A stretch of 42,478 bases of DNA from Candidatus Enterousia sp. (GTDB lineage Bacteria > Pseudomonadota > Alphaproteobacteria > Rs-D84). The notes beneath the pieces are model-generated. The model was not told where the DNA came from, did no database searches, and saw only the letters and a list, made by a program, of their open reading frames with translations. The DNA lies in the NCBI GenBank assembly GCA_045576255.1, contig JAZNGD010000003.1:1-42478 (forward strand), written 5' to 3'. Position 1 is the stretch's first letter, and each line of letters opens with the position of its first letter. A program made the translations under genes and the position numbers. Of this stretch, positions 3,242-26,366 are shown in pieces.

Positions 3242-5005
3242 TTAAATTCGAACGCCGAAACCAATTTTCTTGGCAAAACCAGCAGATTTATGTGCCGATA
3301 ACAAGTCGTCAATTTTATCGATAGTAAATTCTGTTTTTATATCAGCACAATTGTTTTTTAACAGTTCGCGACGCAGCACAGCAGTTATTTCACGTTGTGC
3401 TTGGCGGACGCCTTGTTCAGAAGTATAATTTTGAATTATATGTCTGATTGCATCGTCGGACATAACGATATTTTCAGGTTGCCATCCTGTATCGCGTGCT
3501 GCGCGTTTAATCAAGTGTTCGCGTGCGATTTGTGTTTTTTCTTCCATAGAATAACCTGGAATTTCGATTATTTCCATACGGTCTTTCAAAGCGTTTGACA
3601 TATTCAAACTGTTTGCTGTTGCGATAAACAGAACATTAGACAAATCAAAATCAACTTCCAGATAATGATCGCGAAAAGTTTTGTTTTGTTCTGGGTCCAG
3701 TATTTCTAATAATGCAGATTCTGGATCGCCGCGCCAATCGCGTCCCATTTTATCGATTTCATCCAACACGATAACAGGATTGTTTGTTTTGCATCTTTTC
3801 AATGCATCCATTATACGACCGGTTTGTGCGCCGATGTATGTTTTACGATGTCCGCGAAAATGTGATTCATCGGAAATCCCACCCAACGAAATACGATGAT
3901 ATTTACGCCCAAGCGCATTCGCAACGGATTTTCCCAGTGATGTTTTTCCAACCCCAGGCGCACCAACCAAACACAGAATGCTGCCCTGATTAGTTCCTGT
4001 TTTTTTCATAACTGCGATATGTTCCAGTATTCTTTCTTTGACGTTTTCCATACCAGAATGTTCTGCGTCCAAAATTGCGCGCGCATATTCCAAATCGATT
4101 TCTTTTTTATCAGATTTCCCCCAAGGCATAGCTAACAATTCATCCAGATATGTTTTCAATAATCCGCCTTCGTTCGACATTGGCGACATAGAACGCATAC
4201 GTTTCCATTCGGACATTGCTTTTTCTTTTGCGTCATTTGACATCGCGGAATTTTGGATTTTTTTGCGCAAGTTTACGGTATCTGCTTCGCCATCGTCTTC
4301 GCCCATTTCGCGTTGGATTGCGCGCATTTTTTCTTGTAATATAGCTTCACGTCGACCGTTTTCCATTTGTTGATGGATTCGTTTGTTGATAGATTCTTCA
4401 ATTTTTGCGCTTTCAACAACCAATTTTACTTCTTCCAGTAATATAGTCAGTTTTTCATTCCAGCTGGGTGCGCATAAAATCTTGACAGCAACATCTGTGT
4501 CCAGGTCCAGCGTTTGTATAACAGAATCAACGAACGCCGACATAGGATAATTTTCAACAACGTTGCGAATTTTATCCATTTTAAATTTTCTTGTTGCGTT
4601 TGCCAAAGTTTGCATATTATCGGCGACAATATCGCGCAACATTAAAACAGATTCATCGTTTTCGTCGTTTGCGATTGCGATTTCATTTGTTTCCGCGGCA
4701 AATATACCATCTTTTAATTCAATGTTCTGCAAAGAAACCACGCCAGTTGTCTTGATAAGTGCGTGTATTGCACCGTCCGGCATTGTAAATATATGAATTA
4801 TATCGCCAATTGTACCAACGGAATATATATCGTCAATACTGGTTGGATACCCCCAAGTGTGTTGTGGAACCAGAATTAATTGTTGTTGTCCACTTTGGGC
4901 GGCGGTCTTTACACAATTGACAGACAATGGATTGTCTACTAATACTGGTACAGCGGTCCCCGGAGATACAACAAGATTTCTAAAAGGTAAAATAAATTTT
5001 TTCAT
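3242..5005 (-). CDS. Lon-like AAA+ ATPase (Lon N-domain plus AAA+ module, no S16 peptidase domain)
   Basis: ILPFRNLVVSPG Lon N-terminus, Walker A GAPGVGKTS, GHRKTYIGA, Walker B VIVLDEIDK and lid GVRQAQREI. The ORF stops at ..KKIGFGVRI, where canonical LonA continues into the protease domain. Confidence 0.85.
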   Translation of the reverse strand: MKKFILPFRNLVVSPGTAVPVLVDNPLSVNCVKTAAQSGQQQLILVPQHTWGYPTSIDDIYSVGTIGDIIHIFTMPDGAIHALIKTTGVVSLQNIELKDGIFAAETNEIAIANDENDESVLMLRDIVADNMQTLANATRKFKMDKIRNVVENYPMSAFVDSVIQTLDLDTDVAVKILCAPSWNEKLTILLEEVKLVVESAKIEESINKRIHQQMENGRREAILQEKMRAIQREMGEDDGEADTVNLRKKIQNSAMSNDAKEKAMSEWKRMRSMSPMSNEGGLLKTYLDELLAMPWGKSDKKEIDLEYARAILDAEHSGMENVKERILEHIAVMKKTGTNQGSILCLVGAPGVGKTSLGKSVANALGRKYHRISLGGISDESHFRGHRKTYIGAQTGRIMDALKRCKTNNPVIVLDEIDKMGRDWRGDPESALLEILDPEQNKTFRDHYLEVDFDLSNVLFIATANSLNMSNALKDRMEIIEIPGYSMEEKTQIAREHLIKRAARDTGWQPENIVMSDDAIRHIIQNYTSEQGVRQAQREITAVLRRELLKNNCADIKTEFTIDKIDDLLSAHKSAGFAKKIGFGVRI

Positions 5006-5086
5006 AGCTACATAAATATAAAGCTTTTTTATAAAATTTCAAGATATATAAAAATGTTAAATTGGAATGTTATCAAGGTTGTTTAT

Positions 5087-5113
5087 AAAAAAAACGCGCG
5101 GTTGCGCGTTTTC
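5087..5113. terminator. bidirectional intrinsic terminator
   Basis: aacgcgc-ggtt-gcgcgtt hairpin (5093-5110) flanked by A- and T-runs. Confidence 0.65.
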
Positions 5114-5131
5114 TTTGATTTGTGTCATTTT

Positions 5132-5356
5132 TTAACGACGACGAAATCCGTTGTGTTGTACAGAATTGCTGGAACGTTTTGATAAATAACGCGCTGCAAT
5201 CAATACCAACCATTCCAAAGATAAAACCGCCAACGCCAATAATTTTGTTTCAGTTCCAGACAGCCATCCTAATACATAAACCAACTGTGCAATAAAAGAT
5301 AAATACAAAATACCGAATACGCCTGTAAAGAATACTTTTTTAACTTTTCCGAACAT
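5132..5356 (-). CDS. small two-TM membrane protein, hypothetical
   Basis: AGGAAGG RBS 6 nt upstream of the ATG, two hydrophobic segments, terminator downstream. Confidence 0.55.
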   Translation of the reverse strand: MFGKVKKVFFTGVFGILYLSFIAQLVYVLGWLSGTETKLLALAVLSLEWLVLIAARYLSKRSSNSVQHNGFRRR

Positions 5357-5397
5357 TTTTTTGCCTTCCTATATTTTATAAAGATTTACTTTAAATT

Positions 5398-5743
5398 CAA
5401 AATGTCGGGTTTCTGGTGCCAGGTACCCGACCAACCCCGCAATAACTAAAACGAATACGGTCAACAATTGCCAACGGTATTCAAGCCATCATTAGGCAGC
5501 CATTGCAAGGCGAACGTTGTCGTTCGCAGCGATTCTATCGCCATTCAGTTTTTAGTCGGCTTTTAACGACGCCATGTCGGATTCAACCAGTTTGTCTTTC
5601 ATCATCTGTCGAAACTATGTCAGCCCCATAACCAAATATGACACAAAAATCATATCAGATAATGGTGGAGCTGTGGGGTACCGCCCCCCAGTCCAAAATG
5701 ACTATTGCACAACGGTTTCAGAATCATCACTGCGTTTGCAGCA
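5398..5743 (-). ncRNA. ssrA: two-piece (circularly permuted) tmRNA gene
   Basis: Minus strand. The acceptor piece ends ..GGGGCGGUACCCCACAGCUCCACCA (CCA at 5665-5663). After a 35-nt spacer the coding piece starts GGGGCUG (5627-5621), which pairs with CAGCUCC and includes the G3:U alanine identity pair. Tag ORF is GCG AAC GAC AAC GTT CGC CTT GCA ATG GCT GCC TAA = ANDNVRLAMAA (5527-5492). Terminal hairpin at 5404-5431 plus a U-run. Outer ends are approximate. Confidence 0.85.
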
Positions 5744-5748
5744 CGACA

Positions 5749-5777
5749 ATTATAGTCTTTTAGACTGGAAATTGCAA
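5749..5777 (-). promoter_or_regulatory. sigma70-type promoter of ssrA
   Basis: TTGCAA (5777-5772), a 17-nt spacer, then TATAAT (5754-5749) on the minus strand. Confidence 0.6.
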
Positions 5778-5795
5778 GTTTTTAAGTTATAATAA

Positions 5796-7363
<1,568 letters not shown>

Positions 7364-8329: not shown

Positions 8330-8406
8330 CGGGGTGTAGCTCAGCCTGGTAGAGTACTTGCATGGGGTGCAAGGGGTCGCAGGTTCGATTCCTGTCACCC
8401 CGACCA
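8330..8406 (+). tRNA. tRNA-Pro(GGG)
   Basis: 77-nt cloverleaf: acceptor CGGGGTG/CACCCCG, anticodon loop ATGGGGT, T-loop TTCGATT, encoded CCA. Confidence 0.92.
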
Positions 8407-8613
8407 TATAAATTCAAATCGGCATTTATGCCGATTTTAATTTATATAGTGGGTATAACGGATTGAGCCTTTACATTGAGAATCAATGTACAGGTTCGAC
8501 TATGAGTAGACGTTCGCGCAAGTAGTGCAGCGAACGTCCAACGAATGCCCCGCAGTCCTGCATAGCAGGCGAGGGATTCCTGTCACCCCGACCATATAAA
8601 TTCAAATCGGCAT
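8387..8613 (+). repeat. 39-bp direct repeats (8387-8425 and 8575-8613) duplicating the tRNA-Pro 3' end and bracketing a 149-bp structured insert
   Basis: Exact repeat gattcctgtcaccccgaccatataaattcaaatcggcat. The insert has hairpins at 8472-8490, 8509-8538 and 8557-8569 and the motif AGGTTCGA..GAGTAGA shared with the insert at 26191-26326. Confidence 0.7.
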
Positions 8614-11783: not shown

Positions 11784-11810
11784 AACAAAACCTGCGTTTA
11801 ATATAATTTT

Positions 11811-11855
11811 TGGTGTGCCCAGCGGGATTCGAACCCACAGTCTTCGCCTTCGGAG
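11811..11855 (-). pseudogene. 3' half of a disrupted host tRNA-Arg(CCG), the left island junction
   Basis: The reverse complement reads CTCCGAA-GGCGA-AGACT-GTGGGTTCGAATCCCGC-TGGGCAC-A-CCA. It ends exactly at the anticodon loop and its acceptor strand pairs with the 5' half at 18420-18458. Confidence 0.88.
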
Positions 11856-11940
11856 TTATATGCTTTGACTGATGTCAAATTCGCTATAATCCTTTGTTTG
11901 TAAGGCGTTGGGCGTGCCTGTATTTATGCTTAAAATTTTG

Positions 11941-11959
11941 TGGCTACCGTATGGCTACC
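11941..11959 (+). promoter_or_regulatory. putative integrase arm-type sites, left end (2 x TGGCTACC)
   Basis: TGGCTACC at 11941-11948 and 11952-11959, with an 11-bp period. The same motif occurs three times at 18269-18296. Confidence 0.45.
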
Positions 11960-11999
11960 TTTTGATATAAAATCAAAGCAAATTTCAAGCAAAATCTTC

Positions 12000-12076
12000 T
12001 GGCGTACCCAGCAGGATTCGAACCTGCAGTCTTCACCTTCGGAGGGTGACGTGTTATCCAGTTGCACCATGGGTAC
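12000..12076 (-). tRNA. island-borne intact tRNA-Arg(CCG)
   Basis: 77-nt cloverleaf: GTACCCA/TGGGTAC acceptor, anticodon loop CTCCGAA, T-arm GCAGG-TTCGAAT-CCTGC, encoded CCA. A TATAGT -10-like box lies about 9 nt upstream. Confidence 0.9.
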
Positions 12077-12240
12077 GTACCGTCAGTATACTATAATAAA
12101 ATTTAATAAAAATCAATCTGCAAGCACATAAATTTAATTGGTTGCTTCATACGACGTAAATATATTTGTTTCTACGGTTGAAAACAGTGAATTCATACCT
12201 ATATTAATAAAGCAATTTAACATAAAATAAAGGTGATAAA

Positions 12241-14271
12241 ATGAAATTAAGGAAAGTTGAAATTGAAAATTTTCGGTCTATAAAAAGTGCTGATATTGAT
12301 TTTGAAAAATACCCATGTCGTATTTTATGGGGAGTTAACGAAAGTGGAAAGAGCAACATAATCAAGGCATTAATGACACTTGATCCAAAATATGACATTC
12401 AACAACATTCTGCCCAGGATAAAAGAATGCCATCAGACGAAGAAACCGACTTTAGTCATCAATATTGGGTTGATTTTTGTTTTGCCTTGGATGATGCAGA
12501 ATTGTTAGGTGTTTATAACAAATTAAAAACTTTGTTCTTATCCAAGAATATTGAAACAGAAAAAATAATCAAAACCGCAAAAAAACAATTTACATTAAAC
12601 GAACTTGTCGCTGCATCAAAAAATATTGTAAAAAGGGTCAATTTGGACAGTGAAAATAACGACCGTCCCGTTTTGTGTTATACTGGTGATTTCACCGCTA
12701 CGCCCAAACCAGAAAAAGAAACATACGAATTGCTAGATGGTTGGTATCAAATACCTGTCAATGTAACAAGTATTAAAATTGAACCAAATAAAATAATTCA
12801 AAAAGGAAATTATAAATTTATAAAATTTGACGACTATGCAGAAAATTATACAGAAGCAGAAATCGCCCAAATGAAAGCCAAACCATTAACTATCTCTGAA
12901 TTGCGTAAATTGGTGCGTGCAGAAATTGAAAATATGGCAAATGCCAAAGTGCCAAATATAATTTCATGGGATGCACTGAAAGACCAAACATTTCATTCCG
13001 ATATACCAATGCAAACTTTTTTACAAAATCCAAGTGCTGAAGCATATTCACACTTCAAAAGTATGTGTTTGTTGGCATCCAAGTATTTTCCGCATAATAA
13101 TGATGCAGAAATTGTTAAAGTTTTTGAAGATGCAAAAAAGGCGAATAGACTGGAAAGTTTATACAGCCACATAGAAGCGGAATCTACCAGATATTTACAA
13201 TCTATTTGGAAAGGGTTTGAAAATGAAGAATTGGTTATAAACACCTCCAGAGGCAACGATTTGATTGGAATTAGTGTCAAACATGTTGGAAGATTCGCCA
13301 ATAAAATACCAACATCATATAGAAGCGACGGATTTAAAAAATTCTTAAAACTTATGTTAACCCTGTCGCTCAAGGTTAAGTATTGTGATATAAAAGATAC
13401 AATAATATTAATTGATGAAGCGGAAACGTTTTTGCATCCGTCTGCGGCAGAAAATTTCCGTGACGAACTAATCAAACTGTCGCAAATTAATAATAATCGC
13501 ATTGTTTTTTCAACACATTCACCGTTCATGATAGACGACAATAATATTGAACGCCATATCATAGTAGAAAAAGATGGCGAAACAACGTCCATTAAAGACG
13601 GACAAGAAGGTCGGTACTTCAAAGAAGAAGAACTTTGGCAAAAAATGGGTTGTCCAATATTGCGTGCCTTTGCACCTAAGAATTTGCTGTTTGAGGGTTG
13701 GGACGATAAAATTTTATACACTGTAGGGCTTAATAAACTTACAGAAGCAGAGCGCAAGATTTTAAAACCTGGACCGACGGCAAAATTAGGGGTTGCTTAT
13801 AGTGACGGTGCACAGAAAATGAGAATTTATGCCCCGACTTTTCAATGGGCGGATTCAAAGCTCATAATTTTGGCTGATTCTGATGATGCGGGAAAAGAAG
13901 AGAAAAAGCATTTTGTGGACAATAGGCTGTGGTGTAATGATACGTTCTTCACTTTTGCAGATTTGGGCGGTTTAGATAACGCCACAGCAGAAGATTATTT
14001 GGTGCAAGACAAGATTGACGAAGCTGTAGCGAAGTTAAAGGCGGAATTTCATATTGAAGATGCACCAGATTTCACAGTAAATGATATGCGCGTTATGCAA
14101 CAGGTTAAAACTTGGTTAAAAAAGAAGTTTACCAGTGAAGAAAAATTGAAGCCAGTGCTGAAAAAATTCAAGGATTTCTTATTTGACGGGTTAACAGAAG
14201 CGGATATCAAAGATGAATATAAAACTGTGCTCAGTGAATTGTCAAAGAAAATAAAAGCTATCAAAAAATAA
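12241..14271 (+). CDS. OLD-family nuclease (N-terminal ABC-type ATPase plus C-terminal TOPRIM)
   Basis: MKLRKVEIENFRSIK start, Walker A GVNESGKSN, Walker B IILIDEAETFLHP, H-loop FSTHSP, TOPRIM Glu (LLFEGWDDK) and DxD (ILADSDDAGKE). AGGTGA RBS. Confidence 0.85.
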   Translation: MKLRKVEIENFRSIKSADIDFEKYPCRILWGVNESGKSNIIKALMTLDPKYDIQQHSAQDKRMPSDEETDFSHQYWVDFCFALDDAELLGVYNKLKTLFLSKNIETEKIIKTAKKQFTLNELVAASKNIVKRVNLDSENNDRPVLCYTGDFTATPKPEKETYELLDGWYQIPVNVTSIKIEPNKIIQKGNYKFIKFDDYAENYTEAEIAQMKAKPLTISELRKLVRAEIENMANAKVPNIISWDALKDQTFHSDIPMQTFLQNPSAEAYSHFKSMCLLASKYFPHNNDAEIVKVFEDAKKANRLESLYSHIEAESTRYLQSIWKGFENEELVINTSRGNDLIGISVKHVGRFANKIPTSYRSDGFKKFLKLMLTLSLKVKYCDIKDTIILIDEAETFLHPSAAENFRDELIKLSQINNNRIVFSTHSPFMIDDNNIERHIIVEKDGETTSIKDGQEGRYFKEEELWQKMGCPILRAFAPKNLLFEGWDDKILYTVGLNKLTEAERKILKPGPTAKLGVAYSDGAQKMRIYAPTFQWADSKLIILADSDDAGKEEKKHFVDNRLWCNDTFFTFADLGGLDNATAEDYLVQDKIDEAVAKLKAEFHIEDAPDFTVNDMRVMQQVKTWLKKKFTSEEKLKPVLKKFKDFLFDGLTEADIKDEYKTVLSELSKKIKAIKK

Positions 14272-14287
14272 TTAAATTATGTGGCTT

Positions 14288-14713
14288 TTATAAATGCACG
14301 ATTTTGACTTCTGGGAAATGTTGTTGCAGGTATTCCGCAACAAGTCGCCTGTGGCAATTTTCAGCAGTCTTTTCTGCACATAAAAAACACACCTTATTTA
14401 TGGTGTCGGGCGTGAACAGGTTTTCTATCCGACGTTTTGTAAGTATGTCGTTGAAAATCTGTTCGTATTCCGCCCAATTTATCGTGCCGTTCTTGATTTT
14501 GGTTAACAAATCAAGCGTTGGTGCCAGTTCTGGCATATATTTATATCTGTCGCCAAGAATACGCTGTAAATTCGTGCCAGATGTCCAAGGCACAAATCGC
14601 GACTGTCGCCACAATCGAACATCAATCACGGTATTAACATCAACAGCATTTAGTATTTCTGCGAAAATTTCTTTGTTTTTTCCGTTTGTTCCGATTGTGT
14701 ATATTTTAAGCAT
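14288..14713 (-). CDS. DUF488-family protein (YeaO-like)
   Basis: IYTIG..., VIDVR, and the C-terminal FLCAEKTAENCHRRLVAEYL signature typical of DUF488. The start overlaps the upstream stop (TAATG). Confidence 0.75.
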   Translation of the reverse strand: MLKIYTIGTNGKNKEIFAEILNAVDVNTVIDVRLWRQSRFVPWTSGTNLQRILGDRYKYMPELAPTLDLLTKIKNGTINWAEYEQIFNDILTKRRIENLFTPDTINKVCFLCAEKTAENCHRRLVAEYLQQHFPEVKIVHL

Positions 14714-15117
14714 TATTTATTCCATTTAACCTTTTGGGCGATAGGGTAATGATGTCTGGTATTAATAAGACCAGTGTCAGCATAACAGTAATTTTCTGGG
14801 TCTTTTATGCTGTAAGTGCGTCCATGTGCATATCCATTGCCGGCATTTTTTATAATCCATGTTTTATGTCTTGTATAATGTCCTTTGTCTGCTCGGACAA
14901 CTGCATCTGTGTCGTTCAAATCTGTGATATAAACAAAGTCCGTTAATTCAAAAACACATTTCGCTTTGCCTTTTTTATATCTGTCAGAATCTGTGTCCAG
15001 ACTGCAATGGTTAACATACCAATAGCCACCTTTTTCTGTGCATTGTTTTTCATTTAAAAAAGTGGCACATCCGGCAAGTGTTGTTATTATTGCCATTGAT
15101 GTCAAAATGTGTTTCAT
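14713..15117 (-). CDS. lipoprotein, hypothetical
   Basis: Signal peptide with lipobox ITTLAGC. CAGGAG RBS. Translationally coupled to the DUF488 gene. Confidence 0.7.
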   Translation of the reverse strand: MKHILTSMAIITTLAGCATFLNEKQCTEKGGYWYVNHCSLDTDSDRYKKGKAKCVFELTDFVYITDLNDTDAVVRADKGHYTRHKTWIIKNAGNGYAHGRTYSIKDPENYCYADTGLINTRHHYPIAQKVKWNK

Positions 15118-15140
15118 TTAACAACTCCTGTGTTGGGTTA

Positions 15141-15335
15141 AACAAAAACCACCGAGAAAAATCTAGGTGGTTGGAGTTTTCTAACAATCATTAAGAATTG
15201 CGCGCCTTATTCAATATATTCAACGCACTCCAACCATAAGGTTGGAGAGAATGTTTCGCCATCTCGGGCGCTTAATGAAGGGTTAGAAAGCCCAATGCAA
15301 GAACACCTTGCATCAATTTCAATGTATCAATTTTT
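15141..15335 (-). promoter_or_regulatory. structured leader or ncRNA with an intrinsic terminator just upstream of the lipoprotein RBS (candidate attenuator or riboswitch-like element)
   Basis: Minus-strand RNA. Terminator is AACCACC-12 nt-GGUGGUU plus UUUGUUU (15172-15141). CUCCAACC occurs twice and its complement GGUUGGAG once, which allows mutually exclusive pairings. There is an 8-bp long-range helix UCAUUAAG/CUUAAUGA and further local hairpins. Confidence 0.45.
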
Positions 15336-15878
15336 TTAGGAAAAATCAACCGGTTTTATCTGGTTTTTGCTTTTTGGTGAAATTAAATCTATGTCTAAAA
15401 TAATTGTATCGTTTGTGATTCTTGTGCCGTCAATTTTTAATTCTTTGGTGATATACGAATAAACACCATCAGAATATATTTTTGTTATCATAATATCGTC
15501 ACCGTATTGTTTTGATGCGGTTTGTTTATCTGTTAAATCATACCATATATCCATTTTTAAGACCGTGGACAGCCCTTTAAGGGTTTCTTGGATGTTGGGT
15601 AGGGCAAAGTGTGCTAAACGTACTCCAAGGATGAAATGTGCGTGCATGTTTAATCGACTGCCTACTTCCTTGAATCCTATTAGCAGAAATTCTTTGTCGT
15701 ATCGTTTGTGCCAGTGGCGACCAAGTAATTTGCGAAACAATCTACAAAATACGGGCTTGCACCGTTTTTGTAGTTCGGCTTTTGTTTTGGGTGCGGTTTT
15801 GAAGCGAATAGATATAAAATATGCTTCGTTGCCACCCAGTTTTTTTAACCAATTTTGTATTTCTGTTTTACAGTGCAT
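15336..15878 (-). CDS. HUH-type Rep-like protein (putative replication or relaxase-type initiator)
   Basis: Three motifs in the canonical order: YFISIRFKT (motif 1-like), NMHAHFILG (HUH) and GVYSYITKE (YxxK). The assignment rests on these motifs only. Confidence 0.45.
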   Translation of the reverse strand: MHCKTEIQNWLKKLGGNEAYFISIRFKTAPKTKAELQKRCKPVFCRLFRKLLGRHWHKRYDKEFLLIGFKEVGSRLNMHAHFILGVRLAHFALPNIQETLKGLSTVLKMDIWYDLTDKQTASKQYGDDIMITKIYSDGVYSYITKELKIDGTRITNDTIILDIDLISPKSKNQIKPVDFS

Positions 15879-16178
15879 TGCGGTTCTCTGTGTGTAGCAA
15901 AAATTCGGTCTTTTTTGTGTTGAATTTGTTGGTTTTTATACTATGCAAAAAGTGTCAAATTTGTCAGATTTTAAACACCGGTAAAAGTGTAAGAATTGTA
16001 AGATTTCTACTATTAAAATTCTAACTGCAAAAATTTTTTTGCAACAGTTGAATTTTAATTTTAAAAGTCCAGAAAATAGCCATTTTTTAGCACATTTCAT
16101 AGAATTGTTGTTATTTGTATAACTGCCAACATTTACGACAAACAGACGCATGTTTTTTTGACGTTTTTGGGTGCGTTT

Positions 16179-16385
16179 TTAAGCGATTGTTGTGAACTGG
16201 TTTGTGCGGTCACATTTGTTGCCGTCTAAATATGCTTGAACATCGGTCATAGCGTATAAAACACGACGTCTGACCTTGGTCCATTTAATCGGGCATTCAC
16301 GATTTGTACGCCAGCGTTCAATAGTGTTCTTTTTTACCTGCAGTAAGTCTGCCAGTTGTTGTGTTGTGATGTATTCATTTTGCAT
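16179..16385 (-). CDS. AlpA-family helix-turn-helix regulator/excisionase
   Basis: 68 aa. TTQQLADLLQVKKNTIERWRTN..P is typical of AlpA/MerR-type HTH proteins in P4-like islands. GGGAG RBS. Confidence 0.8.
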   Translation of the reverse strand: MQNEYITTQQLADLLQVKKNTIERWRTNRECPIKWTKVRRRVLYAMTDVQAYLDGNKCDRTNQFTTIA

Positions 16386-16461
16386 ATCCTTGCTCCCTTT
16401 GTTTTGTTGTTTACAGGGGCAATATATGTCTAAAAATATCCAAATAAAAGTTTATAAAAAT

Positions 16462-16494
16462 TTAGCTAGCTAATGGTTCGTGTTAGCTAGCTAA
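16462..16494. promoter_or_regulatory. twin palindromic operator candidates
   Basis: The perfect 12-bp palindrome TTAGCTAGCTAA occurs at 16462-16473 and 16483-16494, 21 bp centre to centre, upstream of the AlpA-like gene. Confidence 0.5.
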
Positions 16495-16500
16495 TACGAA

Positions 16501-17052
16501 TTACCACATACAAATCCAATCGTAAATTGTTTTTGCACTGCGTTTGATTCCTTGTTTTAAAAGCTCTGCTTGCAAGCAAACAGCTTCGTCAAAACTACGT
16601 TTTTTGCCATTCGCAATCCAAATTTCTTTCGCTTTTTCTTTAATTTTGTTCTTTTTTATAGCAGTAATTTTTGCACCACGCTTTTTTGCGATATATTCCA
16701 GTCTATACAATAAGTGAATTGTATGTGCATATAGTAAACTTTTTAATTCTTCTTGTGCTGATGTCTGAGGGCTGGTTGAGAGTATGAAATAATATTTAAC
16801 AGCACTTTCAAAATACATTTGATCTACATACGATAAGTTTGTGTTATTTTGTAATGATTCATATATGGAGTCAAGCGGCACGTTAAACAGTGTCATATAT
16901 TTTTCGGTTATTAAAGCAATAGATGTATCATTTAATTTATCAAACAATCTGTAGTGATTGTTCTTTTTGGCTCGGTTTAATGCGTTCTTTATCTGTTGTG
17001 TAAACTGTTCTTTACTTAATTCACTGAGTGAAATAATGTTGTTCTGGGTCAT
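16501..17052 (-). CDS. island hypothetical protein
   Basis: Long ORF between the integrase and AlpA-like genes. No recognisable motifs. Confidence 0.6.
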   Translation of the reverse strand: MTQNNIISLSELSKEQFTQQIKNALNRAKKNNHYRLFDKLNDTSIALITEKYMTLFNVPLDSIYESLQNNTNLSYVDQMYFESAVKYYFILSTSPQTSAQEELKSLLYAHTIHLLYRLEYIAKKRGAKITAIKKNKIKEKAKEIWIANGKKRSFDEAVCLQAELLKQGIKRSAKTIYDWICMW

Positions 17053-17064
17053 ATCTGTCCCTTA

Positions 17065-18249
17065 TTATTTTTGTTGGTTGATTGCGGCAAACATTGCGTC
17101 TGTGCCTTTTTGAATACTCTCCAGAACCGCGTTGTTCCCGCGTCTTGCATAAACGGAAATTGCCGCAGGTGATTTATCGCCCAAAGCTTTCCCTATCATT
17201 TCATCTGTTGAGCCACTCATTGCTTGATAACTGGCAAATGTTCTGCGTAAATCGTGCATACGCAGGTTTTCTATTCCGGCACGTTTCAAGAAAGCACGCC
17301 AAGCGATTTGTGGGTTTGCCAAATGTCCGCTTTCTGAACGTTCGCTTGGGAATATCCATTCACTGGTTGCGCGTTCTTTCATGTTTGACAGGTAATCTAA
17401 TGCCTGTTGTGAAAGTGGCACCAGTTGCGGTTTTCCTGTTTTTGTTTTTGCGATACTTAAGGTTTTACGTTCAAAACTGATGTCAGACCAGCGAAGTGCT
17501 TGCATATTGCTACGTCGTTGCCCAACAAGCAGACATAGCATTACGAAATCACGAAACCACTTTTGTGGTTCTGCATTCAACGCTTCAATAAAATGTGGAA
17601 ATTCGTCTTCTTTGATATAGCGGTCTCTGGACACTTCTTTAAATAATTTTATACGTGCCGCAGGGTTGGTTGTTGGCAAATCCCAATCAATCGCCTTATA
17701 AAACATTTGTCGCATTAATTTTAACGCACGATTGGCAGAATATACACTGTTCAATTCCAGTTTCAACCTGTTGTGCATACGTTCCATGTCACCACGGGTA
17801 ATGTCAAGCATCTTTCGCCGTTTAATCTCGGACGGAATATACAACCGCATAATCATTTCGTCCATGTTTTGTGATTTTTTGTTTTTTCTTACCAATGAAT
17901 GAGCAGGGTAGTAAAAATCGTCAAAAAATTGTTGTACCGTTACATCTTGACGCAATTTCTTTTTCTCGTCATTTGGGTTTTTACCGTCATTGACGATTTT
18001 CATATTTTCAATCAACAAATCACGTGCGTCTTTAAGGGATGTGTTCTCAGAATCTGCCAAATTAACCCATATCTTGCGTCCATTTACGCGTTTAATCAGA
18101 TAATATATTTTTGTTGTTTCGCCGACACGCACAGCCAGATTTTTGGTTGTTGTATCATAAACGGTATATCTGTCACCTTTGTCGGCAAATGGTAATTCTG
18201 CGATTCTCGCTTCGGTAAAATTGAAATGGGTTTCTTTTGGTCTTGGCAT
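17065..18249 (-). CDS. int: tyrosine site-specific integrase, P4-type (DUF4102-like arm-binding N-domain)
   Basis: N-terminus FADKGDRYTVYDTTTKNLAVRVG. Catalytic residues: GQRRSN (Arg), HDLRRT (His-x-x-Arg) and ISVYARR (Tyr). Confidence 0.93.
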   Translation of the reverse strand: MPRPKETHFNFTEARIAELPFADKGDRYTVYDTTTKNLAVRVGETTKIYYLIKRVNGRKIWVNLADSENTSLKDARDLLIENMKIVNDGKNPNDEKKKLRQDVTVQQFFDDFYYPAHSLVRKNKKSQNMDEMIMRLYIPSEIKRRKMLDITRGDMERMHNRLKLELNSVYSANRALKLMRQMFYKAIDWDLPTTNPAARIKLFKEVSRDRYIKEDEFPHFIEALNAEPQKWFRDFVMLCLLVGQRRSNMQALRWSDISFERKTLSIAKTKTGKPQLVPLSQQALDYLSNMKERATSEWIFPSERSESGHLANPQIAWRAFLKRAGIENLRMHDLRRTFASYQAMSGSTDEMIGKALGDKSPAAISVYARRGNNAVLESIQKGTDAMFAAINQQK

Positions 18250-18268
18250 AACTTGTCCTTTTGTGTTG

Positions 18269-18296
18269 TGGCTACCACGGCTACTGTATGGCTACC
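18269..18296 (+). promoter_or_regulatory. putative integrase arm-type sites, right end (3 x GGCTAC) in the int upstream region
   Basis: TGGCTACC at 18269-18276, GGCTAC at 18279-18284 and TGGCTACC at 18289-18296, with a period of about 10 bp, 20-47 bp upstream of the int start codon. Confidence 0.45.
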
Positions 18297-18419
18297 ATTT
18301 AAGATAAAACTAGACGGTTATGATATAAAACATTATAAAGCTATAAAGCCCAGAAATCAAGGGAAAATATAAAAATAAGTAAAATTTGATAAAACCCAAG
18401 AAAAGTGTAGAGCATAAAA

Positions 18420-18458
18420 TTCGGAGGGCGACGCATTATCCAGTTGTGCTATGGGCAC
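18420..18458 (-). pseudogene. 5' half of the disrupted host tRNA-Arg(CCG), the right island junction
   Basis: The reverse complement reads GTGCCCA-TA-GCAC-AACTGGATA-ATGC-G-TCGCC-CTCCGAA. No 3' half follows it. Its acceptor strand pairs with 11815-11821. Confidence 0.88.
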
Positions 18459-26068: not shown

Positions 26069-26156
26069 GGAGCGTTGGCAGAGTGGTAATGCAGCAGATT
26101 GCTAATCTGTGACCGAAATTTTTGGTCCATAGGTTCGAGTCCTATACGCTCCGCCA
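26069..26156 (+). tRNA. tRNA-Ser(GCU)
   Basis: 88-nt class II tRNA: acceptor GGAGCGT/ACGCTCC, anticodon loop TTGCTAA, long variable arm GACC..GGTC, T-loop TTCGAGT, encoded CCA. Confidence 0.92.
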
Positions 26157-26366
26157 TAAAGATTTAACCCACCGTCAGGTGGGTTTAATTATGTGCGGAC
26201 GTTGGACGAGAACCGTCAAGGTTCGATACGGAGTAGATTTGGGAAGTGCAACGCACCCAAATCGTCACGAGTGGAGAGGGGTATCCCCGCCCACTGTGTG
26301 GGCAGGGGAGTCCAGTCCTTTTGCGCCCGCCATAAAGATTTAACCCACCGTCAGGTGGGTTTAATT
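26151..26366 (+). repeat. 40-bp direct repeats (26151-26190 and 26327-26366) covering the tRNA-Ser 3' end plus its terminator hairpin, bracketing a 136-bp structured insert
   Basis: Exact repeat ccgccataaagatttaacccaccgtcaggtgggtttaatt. The insert shares the AGGTTCGA..GAGTAGA motif and a hairpin at the same position (26236-26263) with the tRNA-Pro-linked insert. Confidence 0.7.

Follow-up and report, generated by a model that had tools for sequence, protein, structure and literature searches.

Introduction

The tRNA genes for Ser, Arg, Lys, Pro and Gln are classic targets of genomic islands. Short structured non-coding RNAs are also known near integration hot spots or tRNA genes, among them the C4 antisense RNA of P1 and P7, the CI antisense RNA of P4 (Rfam family c4) and the Acido-Lenti-1 motif, which serve here as a lead only. 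We describe a hairpin-rich module of ~115-150 nt, free of open reading frames (ORFs), that lies behind tRNA-Ser(GCU) and tRNA-Pro(GGG) in a contig of Candidatus Enterousia sp. (assembly GCA_045576255.1, JAZNGD010000003.1, positions 1 to 42,478 of the forward strand; hereafter the window, 42,478 nt). The source is an AT-rich alphaproteobacterium with a permuted tmRNA by Rfam scan. Like islands and prophages that target tRNA genes, and like cis-mobilizable elements (CIMEs), the module shows direct repeats of the tRNA 3′ portion that start in the T loop, tandem accretion, presence in one relative and absence from another, and a preference for tRNAs of the five kinds named above.

More than 100 copies of this gene-less module occur behind tRNA genes in the order Rs-D84, and they are neither chance nor debris. 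A literature search for a described equivalent found none, and the family is previously undescribed. Our preferred reading, to which we give about an even chance, is that it works in folded, single-stranded form, most probably as RNA, and is physically tied to tRNA genes. The first-pass annotation of the window, made from its letters, had proposed a conserved structured RNA or DNA element as opposed to random debris; the copy number and the covariation described below support it.

Family size and distribution

The pattern GGTTCGA-N4-GAGTAGA-N20-40-ACGARTG was taken from the two window copies and run against 185,579 species, each represented by one genome. The scan returned 61 loci, ~57 of them judged real, in ~50 species-level genomes; by our own estimate ~11 matches would arise by chance, and three of the 61, in unrelated phyla, look random. 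The ~57 real loci all belong to Ca. Enterousia or to unnamed metagenome-assembled genomes of gut Alphaproteobacteria or ‘Rickettsiales’, with chicken, horse, human, ruminant and termite gut among the sample sources. The hosts fall within Rs-D84, an uncultured order whose genomes measure 0.75-1.0 Mb (PMC12306168). Run over 505 kb, a covariance model built from the core made 67 real matches, and in the window it found only the two known copies. Because the first pattern fixes GGTTCGA, GAGTAGA and ACGARTG, metagenomes at JGI were scanned with the looser pattern GAGTAGATTT...AAATCGTNAC, which gave 47 loci, 42 of them real. The family suspected from two copies thus extends well beyond them.

Linkage to tRNA genes is strong. 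In the genome set 50 copies have a same-strand tRNA gene 40-130 nt upstream, with most modules 65-110 nt downstream of it, and 11 isoacceptors serve as hosts: Ser(GCU, UGA, CGA), Pro(GGG, CGG), Arg(ACG, UCU, CCG), Lys(CUU, UUU) and Gln(CUG). Just over half of the metagenome copies (22/42) are downstream of a tRNA gene on the same strand, 3/42 are on the opposite strand and still on the tRNA’s 3′ side, and 17/42 have no tRNA within 400 nt, six of those being at contig ends. The metagenomes add Ser(GGA), Val(CAC), Arg(CCU) and Pro(UGG) as hosts, for a total of at least 15 isoacceptors.

Module anatomy

Read 5′ to 3′ on the tRNA strand, a typical unit consists of the tRNA, a trailer with a terminator-like hairpin (T1), the left arm, GGTTCGA, a 4-nt block (CAAT, TACG or CAAG), GAGTAGA, the hairpin P3, the junction TCGTYACGA(A/G/T)TG, Stem II (P5), the right arm and usually a second copy of the terminator (T2). 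The left arm has the family-wide motif GGAYGAGAACC, to which many lineages add a hairpin of lineage-specific sequence; Stem II has a CCCC...(A)GGG(G) base and a variable tip hairpin. The right arm is a copy of the local tRNA from T-loop A58 to CCA. Exact flanking direct repeats of 14-60 nt, starting at A58, are found in most loci, and the repeat periods are mostly 160-200 nt.

Copy behind tRNA-Ser(GCU). All features of both window copies are on the + strand. The host tRNA gene occupies 26069-26156 (ARAGORN; Rfam tRNA 60.1 bits), and its promoter is the sole promoter-like signal that a promoter scan finds upstream of the module. An exact 40-nt repeat (26151-26190 and 26327-26366, period 176), made of CCGCCA, trailer and hairpin, surrounds a 136-bp insert at 26191-26326; sequence comparison reproduces these coordinates and this period as first reported. 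At 88% identity the repeat reaches 56 nt (26135-26190 versus 26311-26366), so that a degenerate tRNA 3′ end closes the insert, as had also been noticed before. Repeat copy 1 (26135-26190) runs from T-loop A58 to CCA and on through the trailer to hairpin T1, whose stem (26166-26185) is followed by a weak T tract, TTTAATTATG, and which fails a + strand terminator scan.

The left arm of this copy (26191-26219) carries (TT)GGACGAGAACC, the family-wide motif in alignments, and is weakly and partly complementary to the right arm, a tentative closing helix P1. Stem I is a long irregular hairpin (26220-26272; RNAalifold and pair counts; 78.6 bits with covariance model R1) that includes the conserved blocks GGTTCGATACGGAGTAGA and TCGTCACGAGTG. 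By RNAalifold its basal helix pairs GUUCG (26221-26225) with CGAGU (26268-26272) and its inner pairs are G26231-C26266 and A26232-U26265; P3 joins 26236-26243 to 26256-26263 under the apical loop AAGUGCAACGCA (pair counts and RNAalifold). In Stem II (26273-26310), CCCCGCCCAC at 26285-26294 pairs with GTGGGCAGGGG at 26298-26308 with a bulged A; GGAGAGGGGUAU, which precedes this stem, could make an alternative small hairpin with CCCC. Repeat copy 2 (26311-26366) is composed of the right arm TCCAGTCCTTTTGCGCCCGCCA (26311-26332), a trailer and terminator T2 (stem 26342-26361, tail TAATTTTTGC), which passes the + strand terminator scan.

The right arm of the Ser copy is tRNA 3′-end-like and differs from the tRNA in a 5-nt block, reading ..CCTTTTGCGCCCGCCA where the tRNA reads ..CCTATACGCTCCGCCA. 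Loci L018, L023, L025-L027, L030 and L042 share the difference, which thus marks one subclade of many species; elsewhere the right arm is identical to the tRNA. The variant may be a foreign tRNA end retained from an earlier host locus, and the tRNAs of the loci examined include no match to the odd arm TTTTGCGCCCGCCA.

Copy behind tRNA-Pro(GGG). This tRNA gene (8330-8406; ARAGORN, Rfam) is followed by the homologous insert that the first-pass annotation had pointed out, 149 bp within an exact 39-nt repeat (8387-8425 and 8575-8613, period 188). Repeat copy 1 extends over 8387-8437, with 8387-8425 as its exact part and hairpin T1 at 8416-8437. The module (8447-8574; model R1 48.6 bits, E=8.6e-10) has a variable left-arm hairpin at 8472-8490, GGTTCGA at 8493-8499 with GUUCG (8494-8498) paired to CGAAU (8542-8546), P3 at 8509-8517/8530-8538, and a Stem II made of CCCC (8548-8551), a tip hairpin (8557-8561/8565-8569) and GGG (8573-8575). 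In repeat copy 2 (8575-8613) the right arm, GATTCCTGTCACCCCGACCA, matches the tRNA 3′ end exactly and leads into 19 nt of trailer, beyond which no terminator hairpin is preserved. This is the most divergent copy of the genome-derived set.

The window contains just two exact copies of the block AGGTTCGAnnnnGAGTAGA, at 8492-8510 and 26219-26237; allowing up to two mismatches, 0.02 matches are expected there and no shuffle reached two. The long hairpin said to start from the final GA of the block is real (GAUUUGGG/CCCAAAUC versus GACGUUCGC/GCGAACGUC), and ACGArTG and the GC hairpins are present as claimed. The description of the insert as ORF-less holds in that no ORF is conserved across copies, and fails for the Ser copy taken literally, which contains a 50-codon ATG ORF. 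A small coding gene was rejected: that ORF is absent or frame-broken elsewhere, with indels between copies breaking its frame, and 12 copies have no ATG ORF at all.

Fold and covariation

P3 is 92.8% paired over 53 distinct sequences, against 27-43% for slid controls. Double-change cells number 72, and none of 500 shuffles attains the covariation score of the real alignment; in its three distal pairs both sides have changed in 17-25 sequences each. The compensatory change first noted between two copies thus holds across the family. RNAalifold extends P3 outward by G-Y and A-U pairs and then by GUUCG with CGA(A/G)U, an extended helix that is 93% paired, so that in the predicted fold the long hairpin is probably closed at its base by pairing of GGTTCGA with ACGArTG, and GGTTCGA need not act as a T loop. 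Nearly every copy has the P5 tip hairpin, in sequences unrelated from one copy to the next, and the left-arm hairpins are likewise retained despite unrelated sequences.

Substitutions in the well-supported helices include 19 changes of U-A to U-G, 12 of G-C to G-U and eight UG/GU in P3, with about six or fewer non-pairs. On the other strand these wobbles would be A-C mismatches, and the folded strand is therefore the tRNA-sense strand. Whole-element folding energy does not differ between plus and minus strands, and strand was assigned from the wobbles instead.

The closing helix P1, in which left and right arms would pair, is tentative. In the alignment L018 shows one clear compensatory change, and a per-type test of complementarity is positive for 10 of 11 tRNA types (p=0.007).

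Two other foldings were considered and rejected. In one, GGTTCGA and the right arm form a T-arm with a domain inserted in the T loop; it was dropped because RNAalifold pairs GUUCG with CGAAU instead and T-stem complementarity is about that of shuffled sequence. In the other, the left arm is an antisense copy of the cognate tRNA 3′ end, like a primer-binding site; duplex-energy and Smith-Waterman tests gave no clear left-arm preference for the cognate tRNA, with a small per-type signal remaining. A perfect 13-nt antisense tRNA-Pro end does exist and is explained by an inverted insertion beside a minus-strand tRNA-Pro(UGG).

Rearrangement and movement

Presence and absence. The terms empty and occupied apply between species. 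L063 (CysS 81% identical) is an empty site, with tRNA-Ser(GCU), a single terminator identical to T1 of L010 and then the cysS promoter; L064 (CysS 75%) is a second empty orthologous site. Since the unit is flanked by repeats, loss and never having been gained look the same at such sites.

Transfer. The Ser(GCU) module of L065 has a left arm and core nearly identical to those of the Arg(UCU) modules of L024 and L040, while in all three the tRNA-end copy and the terminators are local to the locus; the Enterousia tRNA-Ser(GCU) carries a subtype different from that of L065. Judged from these sequences, the module has moved between tRNA genes. The original label of ‘miniature tRNA-linked insert’ is apt, given the empty orthologous sites and one subtype at two different tRNAs.

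Arrays, inversions and nesting. Tandem arrays occur in L002, L014, L050 and L105, with two units and also partial third units. Inverted copies lie behind tRNA-Pro(UGG), where the repeat consists of acceptor strand, CCA and terminator; the joint, read from the sequence, is at TGTCG, common to RC(GGTTCGACAAT) and the tRNA. In L081, L089 and L101 a core plus palindrome sits in the 5′ end of a surface-protein gene beside dnaA (L089 ~1950-2200, - strand), flanked by a 30-nt exact repeat of the gene start, with a duplicated ribosome-binding site/start region and a short upstream ORF. This surface-protein gene has a (CA)n tract that suggests phase variation. Nested insertions fall exactly at GGGAAT|CC and truncations at GGTTCG|. 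Between the right-arm GGGAAT and CC, seven loci (L006, L007, L033, L036, L071, L075 and L103) hold a palindrome of ~70-85 nt (ACGAGAATACACAATTAGAAAAATCATAAAAA ... TTTTATAGATTTTTCTTATTGTGTATCGAGG), whose loop in L071 and L075 contains a complete module core, so that two sequence types are nested in each other.

L007 is chimeric, with a repeat, T1 and left arm of tRNA-Gln type and a right arm of tRNA-Ser(UGA) type, which suggests recombination between modules at different tRNA loci. The 1.78-kb insert in the P5 hairpin of L004 is flanked by a 22-bp direct repeat of the hairpin (CCCCGCCCGTCCCCACGGGCAG; reverse-complement coordinates 4600-6420) and holds two ORFs, one lipoprotein-like (175 aa) and the other outer-membrane-like (367 aa). 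In L011, L012, L019, L045 and L048 other GC-rich sequences, e.g. TCCGTCTTTGCCGCAGGCAAAGCCGCGATCAGCGGA, probably structured, replace T2 after the right-arm CCA, and L048 has a second, shorter core variant between GGGTTCGA and AATCCCTGTGGCGCCACCA; such sequences may represent a second family of elements linked to tRNA ends.

In four species (L032, L034, L037 and L049) the tRNA-Ser(GCU)-module unit is flipped with respect to its conserved neighbours accD and cysS, and two of the four have internally deleted modules. These inversions bear on the idea that the module is a cis-regulatory leader or attenuator of the gene downstream of the tRNA, such as cysS behind tRNA-Ser(GCU). The module does stand between tRNA and next gene, it ends in a terminator, and its arms could in principle pair alternatively. 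Yet the downstream genes differ per tRNA type and have their own promoters, the unit is inverted with respect to cysS in those four species, and the empty sites retain the same cysS upstream region; we consider an attenuator highly unlikely.

Integrase-mediated movement. The main rival of our preferred reading is a non-autonomous DNA mini integrative element, in which a circle of ~170-190 bp (module plus one tRNA 3′ end) would be moved in trans by a tyrosine integrase with a crossover in the T loop or 3′ end; its hairpins would serve as binding sites for proteins or function in folded single-stranded DNA, with any RNA incidental. The repeats indeed run from T-loop A58 to CCA and beyond, as attL and attR of islands do, and tandem accretion, the nested insertions, the truncations at GGTTCG| and the empty sites all suit such an element. 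Among genome loci the T loop is TTCGA in 51/51 module-bearing tRNAs and the module is at 0/7 TTCAA tRNAs, in a biased sample. The same genome has an active-looking integrase island in a tRNA, and the hosts are tRNAs that islands generally favour.

Other evidence runs the opposite way. In a tblastn search with the window integrase, homologues lie within 8 kb at only two of ~60 loci (L014 and L029), there ~2.3 kb from the module and beyond a fabF-like housekeeping gene; no protein family recurs near modules across tRNA types. Junctions vary between lineages, from the T loop to the acceptor strand (inverted Pro(UGG) copies) to a protein gene, and have only 2-5 nt in common, so that there is no single fixed crossover core. 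A T-loop crossover at a new tRNA would leave a hybrid dead tRNA, and these tRNAs are probably single-copy. Hairpins that vary in sequence and are conserved in structure are unexpected of double-stranded protein-binding arms, and orthologous copies persist in many species. We regard a DNA mini-element as unlikely, while keeping it first among the alternatives.

Remnants of larger elements. A further possibility is that the modules are deletion remnants of prophages or islands, the conserved block being an attP arm of one island family. In its favour, the order of tRNA, ~140 bp and a fragment of tRNA 3′ end is like that at the right end of the 6.6-kb tRNA-Arg island of the window. That island’s arm has no sequence in common with the module, however, and none of the >100 loci holds a full-length element with the module core. 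BLAST of the conserved block against 50,697 phage records and 72,556 plasmids gave no match, and in one pattern scan of IMG/VR the sole viral match was a chance one to tandem tRNA-Gly genes; with Rfam 15 also negative, these searches did not return the match to an attP arm of a known prophage family that the first-pass annotation had named as fatal to its proposal. The uniform periods, 160-200 bp in most loci, are not expected from independent deletions either. This explanation seems to us very improbable.

Conservation

Conservation was measured as mean pairwise identity among eight orthologous Ser(GCU) loci. It is 1.00 for GGTTCGA..GAGTAGA, 0.98 for the junction after P3 and 0.97 for the tRNA, falling to 0.82-0.85 in the stems, 0.73-0.77 in T1 and T2, and 0.72 in the spacer to cysS, taken as neutral. 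The unpaired junctions are thus as conserved as the tRNA itself. Their identity is partly forced by the search pattern; neighbours outside the pattern (the 4-nt block, TCGTC and GGAGA) are also nearly invariant within the Ser(GCU) class.

These figures bear on a passive origin by template switching, in which hairpin-rich DNA stalls replication forks and switching at microhomologies copies a functionless module while duplicating its target. Such a process could account for variable target duplications of 13-60 nt bounded by the terminator T tract and T loop, or by 2-5-nt microhomologies, for the unrelated insert of L004 between repeats of the P5 hairpin, and for the chimeric and inverted arrangements. 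It would not be expected to hold unpaired junctions at the level of the tRNA when neutral spacers stand at 0.72, or to keep three hairpins intact by compensatory change. The same 70-nt core is found >100 times in >50 species, unlike random hairpin DNA, and streamlined genomes would purge neutral sequence. We find an origin as a functionless by-product distinctly improbable.

Transcription

A promoter scan of the Ser and Pro loci finds no sigma-70-like promoter in T1 or module, and the next promoters belong to downstream genes. In one metatranscriptome, X23, assembled Logan contigs of 73-127 nt, which carry no strand information, cover T1, left arm, core, P5 and right arm of a close relative’s Ser(GCU) module at a word depth of 31-90. 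Depth is ~16 over the tRNA body and 0-2 over the flanking genes, and one contig runs continuously from the tRNA CCA through T1 into the module. The contigs are suggestive of a short, abundant RNA that read-through from the tRNA would produce.

Interpretation

We return to the preferred reading, a folded-strand family coupled to tRNA genes. Uniform size, compensatory change, strand-specific wobbles, junction conservation and persistence at orthologous sites argue for a real, selected element that works as a folded strand; direct repeats, tandem arrays, presence and absence, both orientations and tRNA-to-tRNA transfer argue for occasional duplicative spread. From these data we infer read-through transcription, RNA in preference to single-stranded DNA as the active form, and a duplicative mechanism.

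In the mechanism that we propose, the module would be transcribed by read-through from the tRNA promoter and end at the second terminator, T2, giving a stable RNA whose 3′ part copies the 3′ end of the neighbouring tRNA. Occasionally it would spread by duplicative recombination at tRNA 3′ ends. A new copy would be joined at short homologies, namely the T-loop CGA/AAT, the terminator T tract or, elsewhere, microhomologies of 2-5 nt, and the target segment between the two joints would become duplicated. The direct repeats could then permit tandem expansion, precise loss and homogenisation.

Several observations weigh against this reading. The X23 contigs leave strand, ends and DNA carry-over unjudgeable, and their low depth over the flanks may partly reflect species mismatch. 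The search for RNA runs turned up none for the Pro copy and was uninformative for a rumen Arg(UCU) copy. T1 resembles a good terminator in many copies, so read-through is an assumption, and a tRNA promoter cannot serve the three inverted copies or the ~10 that lack a tRNA within 400 nt. The GUUCG/CGARU helix and much of the junction conservation were fixed by the first search pattern and add little independent support; in the less constrained metagenome sample GGTTCGA is replaced in ~12/42 copies. G-T wobbles are tolerated in folded single-stranded DNA too. Cruder tests of P1 complementarity were not significant, and T-stem-like pairing at the three variable stem positions was no better than in shuffled sequence (p~0.2, with the Ser class partly mis-parsed). 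Four gut metagenomes yielded no excision joints or empty alleles of modules within populations, contigs breaking at the repeats. Several species have truncated modules (L004, L010, L032 and L037), and the module is evidently dispensable.

A bolder version, which we hold to be doubtful, would make the module a new class of stable RNA that borrows the tRNA promoter and 3′-processing signals and carries an isoacceptor-specific copy of the CCA end. It would act in trans on the machinery of tRNA 3′ ends, as a decoy or regulator of nucleases, CCA-adding or repair enzymes, or toxins, and would copy itself through T-loop-directed duplication of the folded strand, with no encoded protein. Were that so, a self-propagating RNA gene would exist in genomes of less than 1 Mb.

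Genomes of 0.75-1.0 Mb normally shed non-coding DNA, and it is worth attention that several units of ~180 bp are kept in them, in a clade that is uncultured yet widespread in animal and human gut. A functional RNA would be a new family of unusual design, fused to a copy of the 3′ end of the neighbouring tRNA. A mobile element would be one that spreads with long target duplications at tRNA 3′ ends and no encoded recombinase, and would bear on how tRNA genes become hot spots of rearrangement. In practice, the units break metagenome assemblies at tRNA loci, and their repeats drive inversions, chimeras and gene insertions in the host genomes.

Other features of the window

A 6,571-bp island (11849-18419, within 11808-18458, - strand) splits tRNA-Arg(CCG) in the anticodon loop, leaving a 5′ half at 18458-18420 and a 3′ part at 11855-11808 with mutually complementary acceptor strands. 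The island has its own complete tRNA-Arg(CCG) at 12076-12000, 146 nt from its end; replacing a whole tRNA in place of restoring its 3′ half is unusual. Its genes include those for a DUF488 protein (14288-14713), an AAA_15/OLD-like ATPase (12241-14271) and, at 18249-17065, a tyrosine integrase that has an Arm-DNA-binding domain. Arm-type repeats of GGTAGCC lie close to each end (18309-18279 and 11972-11942). The allele without the island is found in metagenomes X2 and X5, where the two sides meet in a 7-nt overlap, CTCCGAA. The permuted, two-piece alphaproteobacterial tmRNA gene lies at 5401-5781 (- strand), has the tag peptide AANDNVRLAMAA and is not followed by a module.

Comparison with known systems

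Rfam 15 gave no match on any module, whether at the gathering threshold, at E up to 10 in the window or at E up to 1 in eight further loci; the first-pass annotation, which could not place the element in a family, was right in that no cmscan match comes at or near threshold. The module accordingly has no sequence or structure match to the C4 and CI RNAs or to Acido-Lenti-1. It does behave as a structured non-coding RNA in general should, with compensatory changes and strand-specific G-U pairs, as seen in P3, the wobbles, the P5 tip and the left-arm hairpins.

Elements moved by tyrosine integrases have flanking direct repeats of the tRNA 3′ portion, as the module has, and an encoded or adjacent integrase, which it lacks. 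Unlike islands and CIMEs, the module measures 115-150 bp, lacks an integrase and arm-type repeats, covaries as an RNA does and joins its targets at variable microhomologies; it is also found inverted, in a protein gene, and kept at orthologous sites in many species.

Rickettsia palindromic elements and repeats like miniature inverted-repeat transposable elements resemble the module in being 100-150 bp long, ORF-less, multi-copy and hairpin-forming, and in their occurrence in reduced alphaproteobacterial genomes. They have terminal inverted repeats, short or no target duplications and no preference for tRNA 3′ ends, whereas the module duplicates a variable 13-60 nt of its target, lacks clear terminal inverted repeats (complementarity of left and right arms being weak) and is strongly linked to tRNAs.

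The tRNA-like RNAs, i.e. the tRNA-like domain of tmRNA, the bacterial Y-RNA-like YrlA and viral tRNA-like structures, reuse the 3′ strand of T-arm and acceptor and end in NCCA, as the module does; its place beside tRNA genes is a further likeness. In contrast to them it lacks a cloverleaf and goes unscored by both ARAGORN and the Rfam tRNA model, and the predicted fold pairs part of its CCA end with the left arm. RNAs from the 3′ external transcribed spacers of tRNAs, such as 3′ETS-leuZ, derive from the transcript downstream of a tRNA, as the module RNA would. They are short, weakly structured, locus-specific sponges, whereas the module is multi-copy, highly structured and equipped with a duplicated tRNA end.

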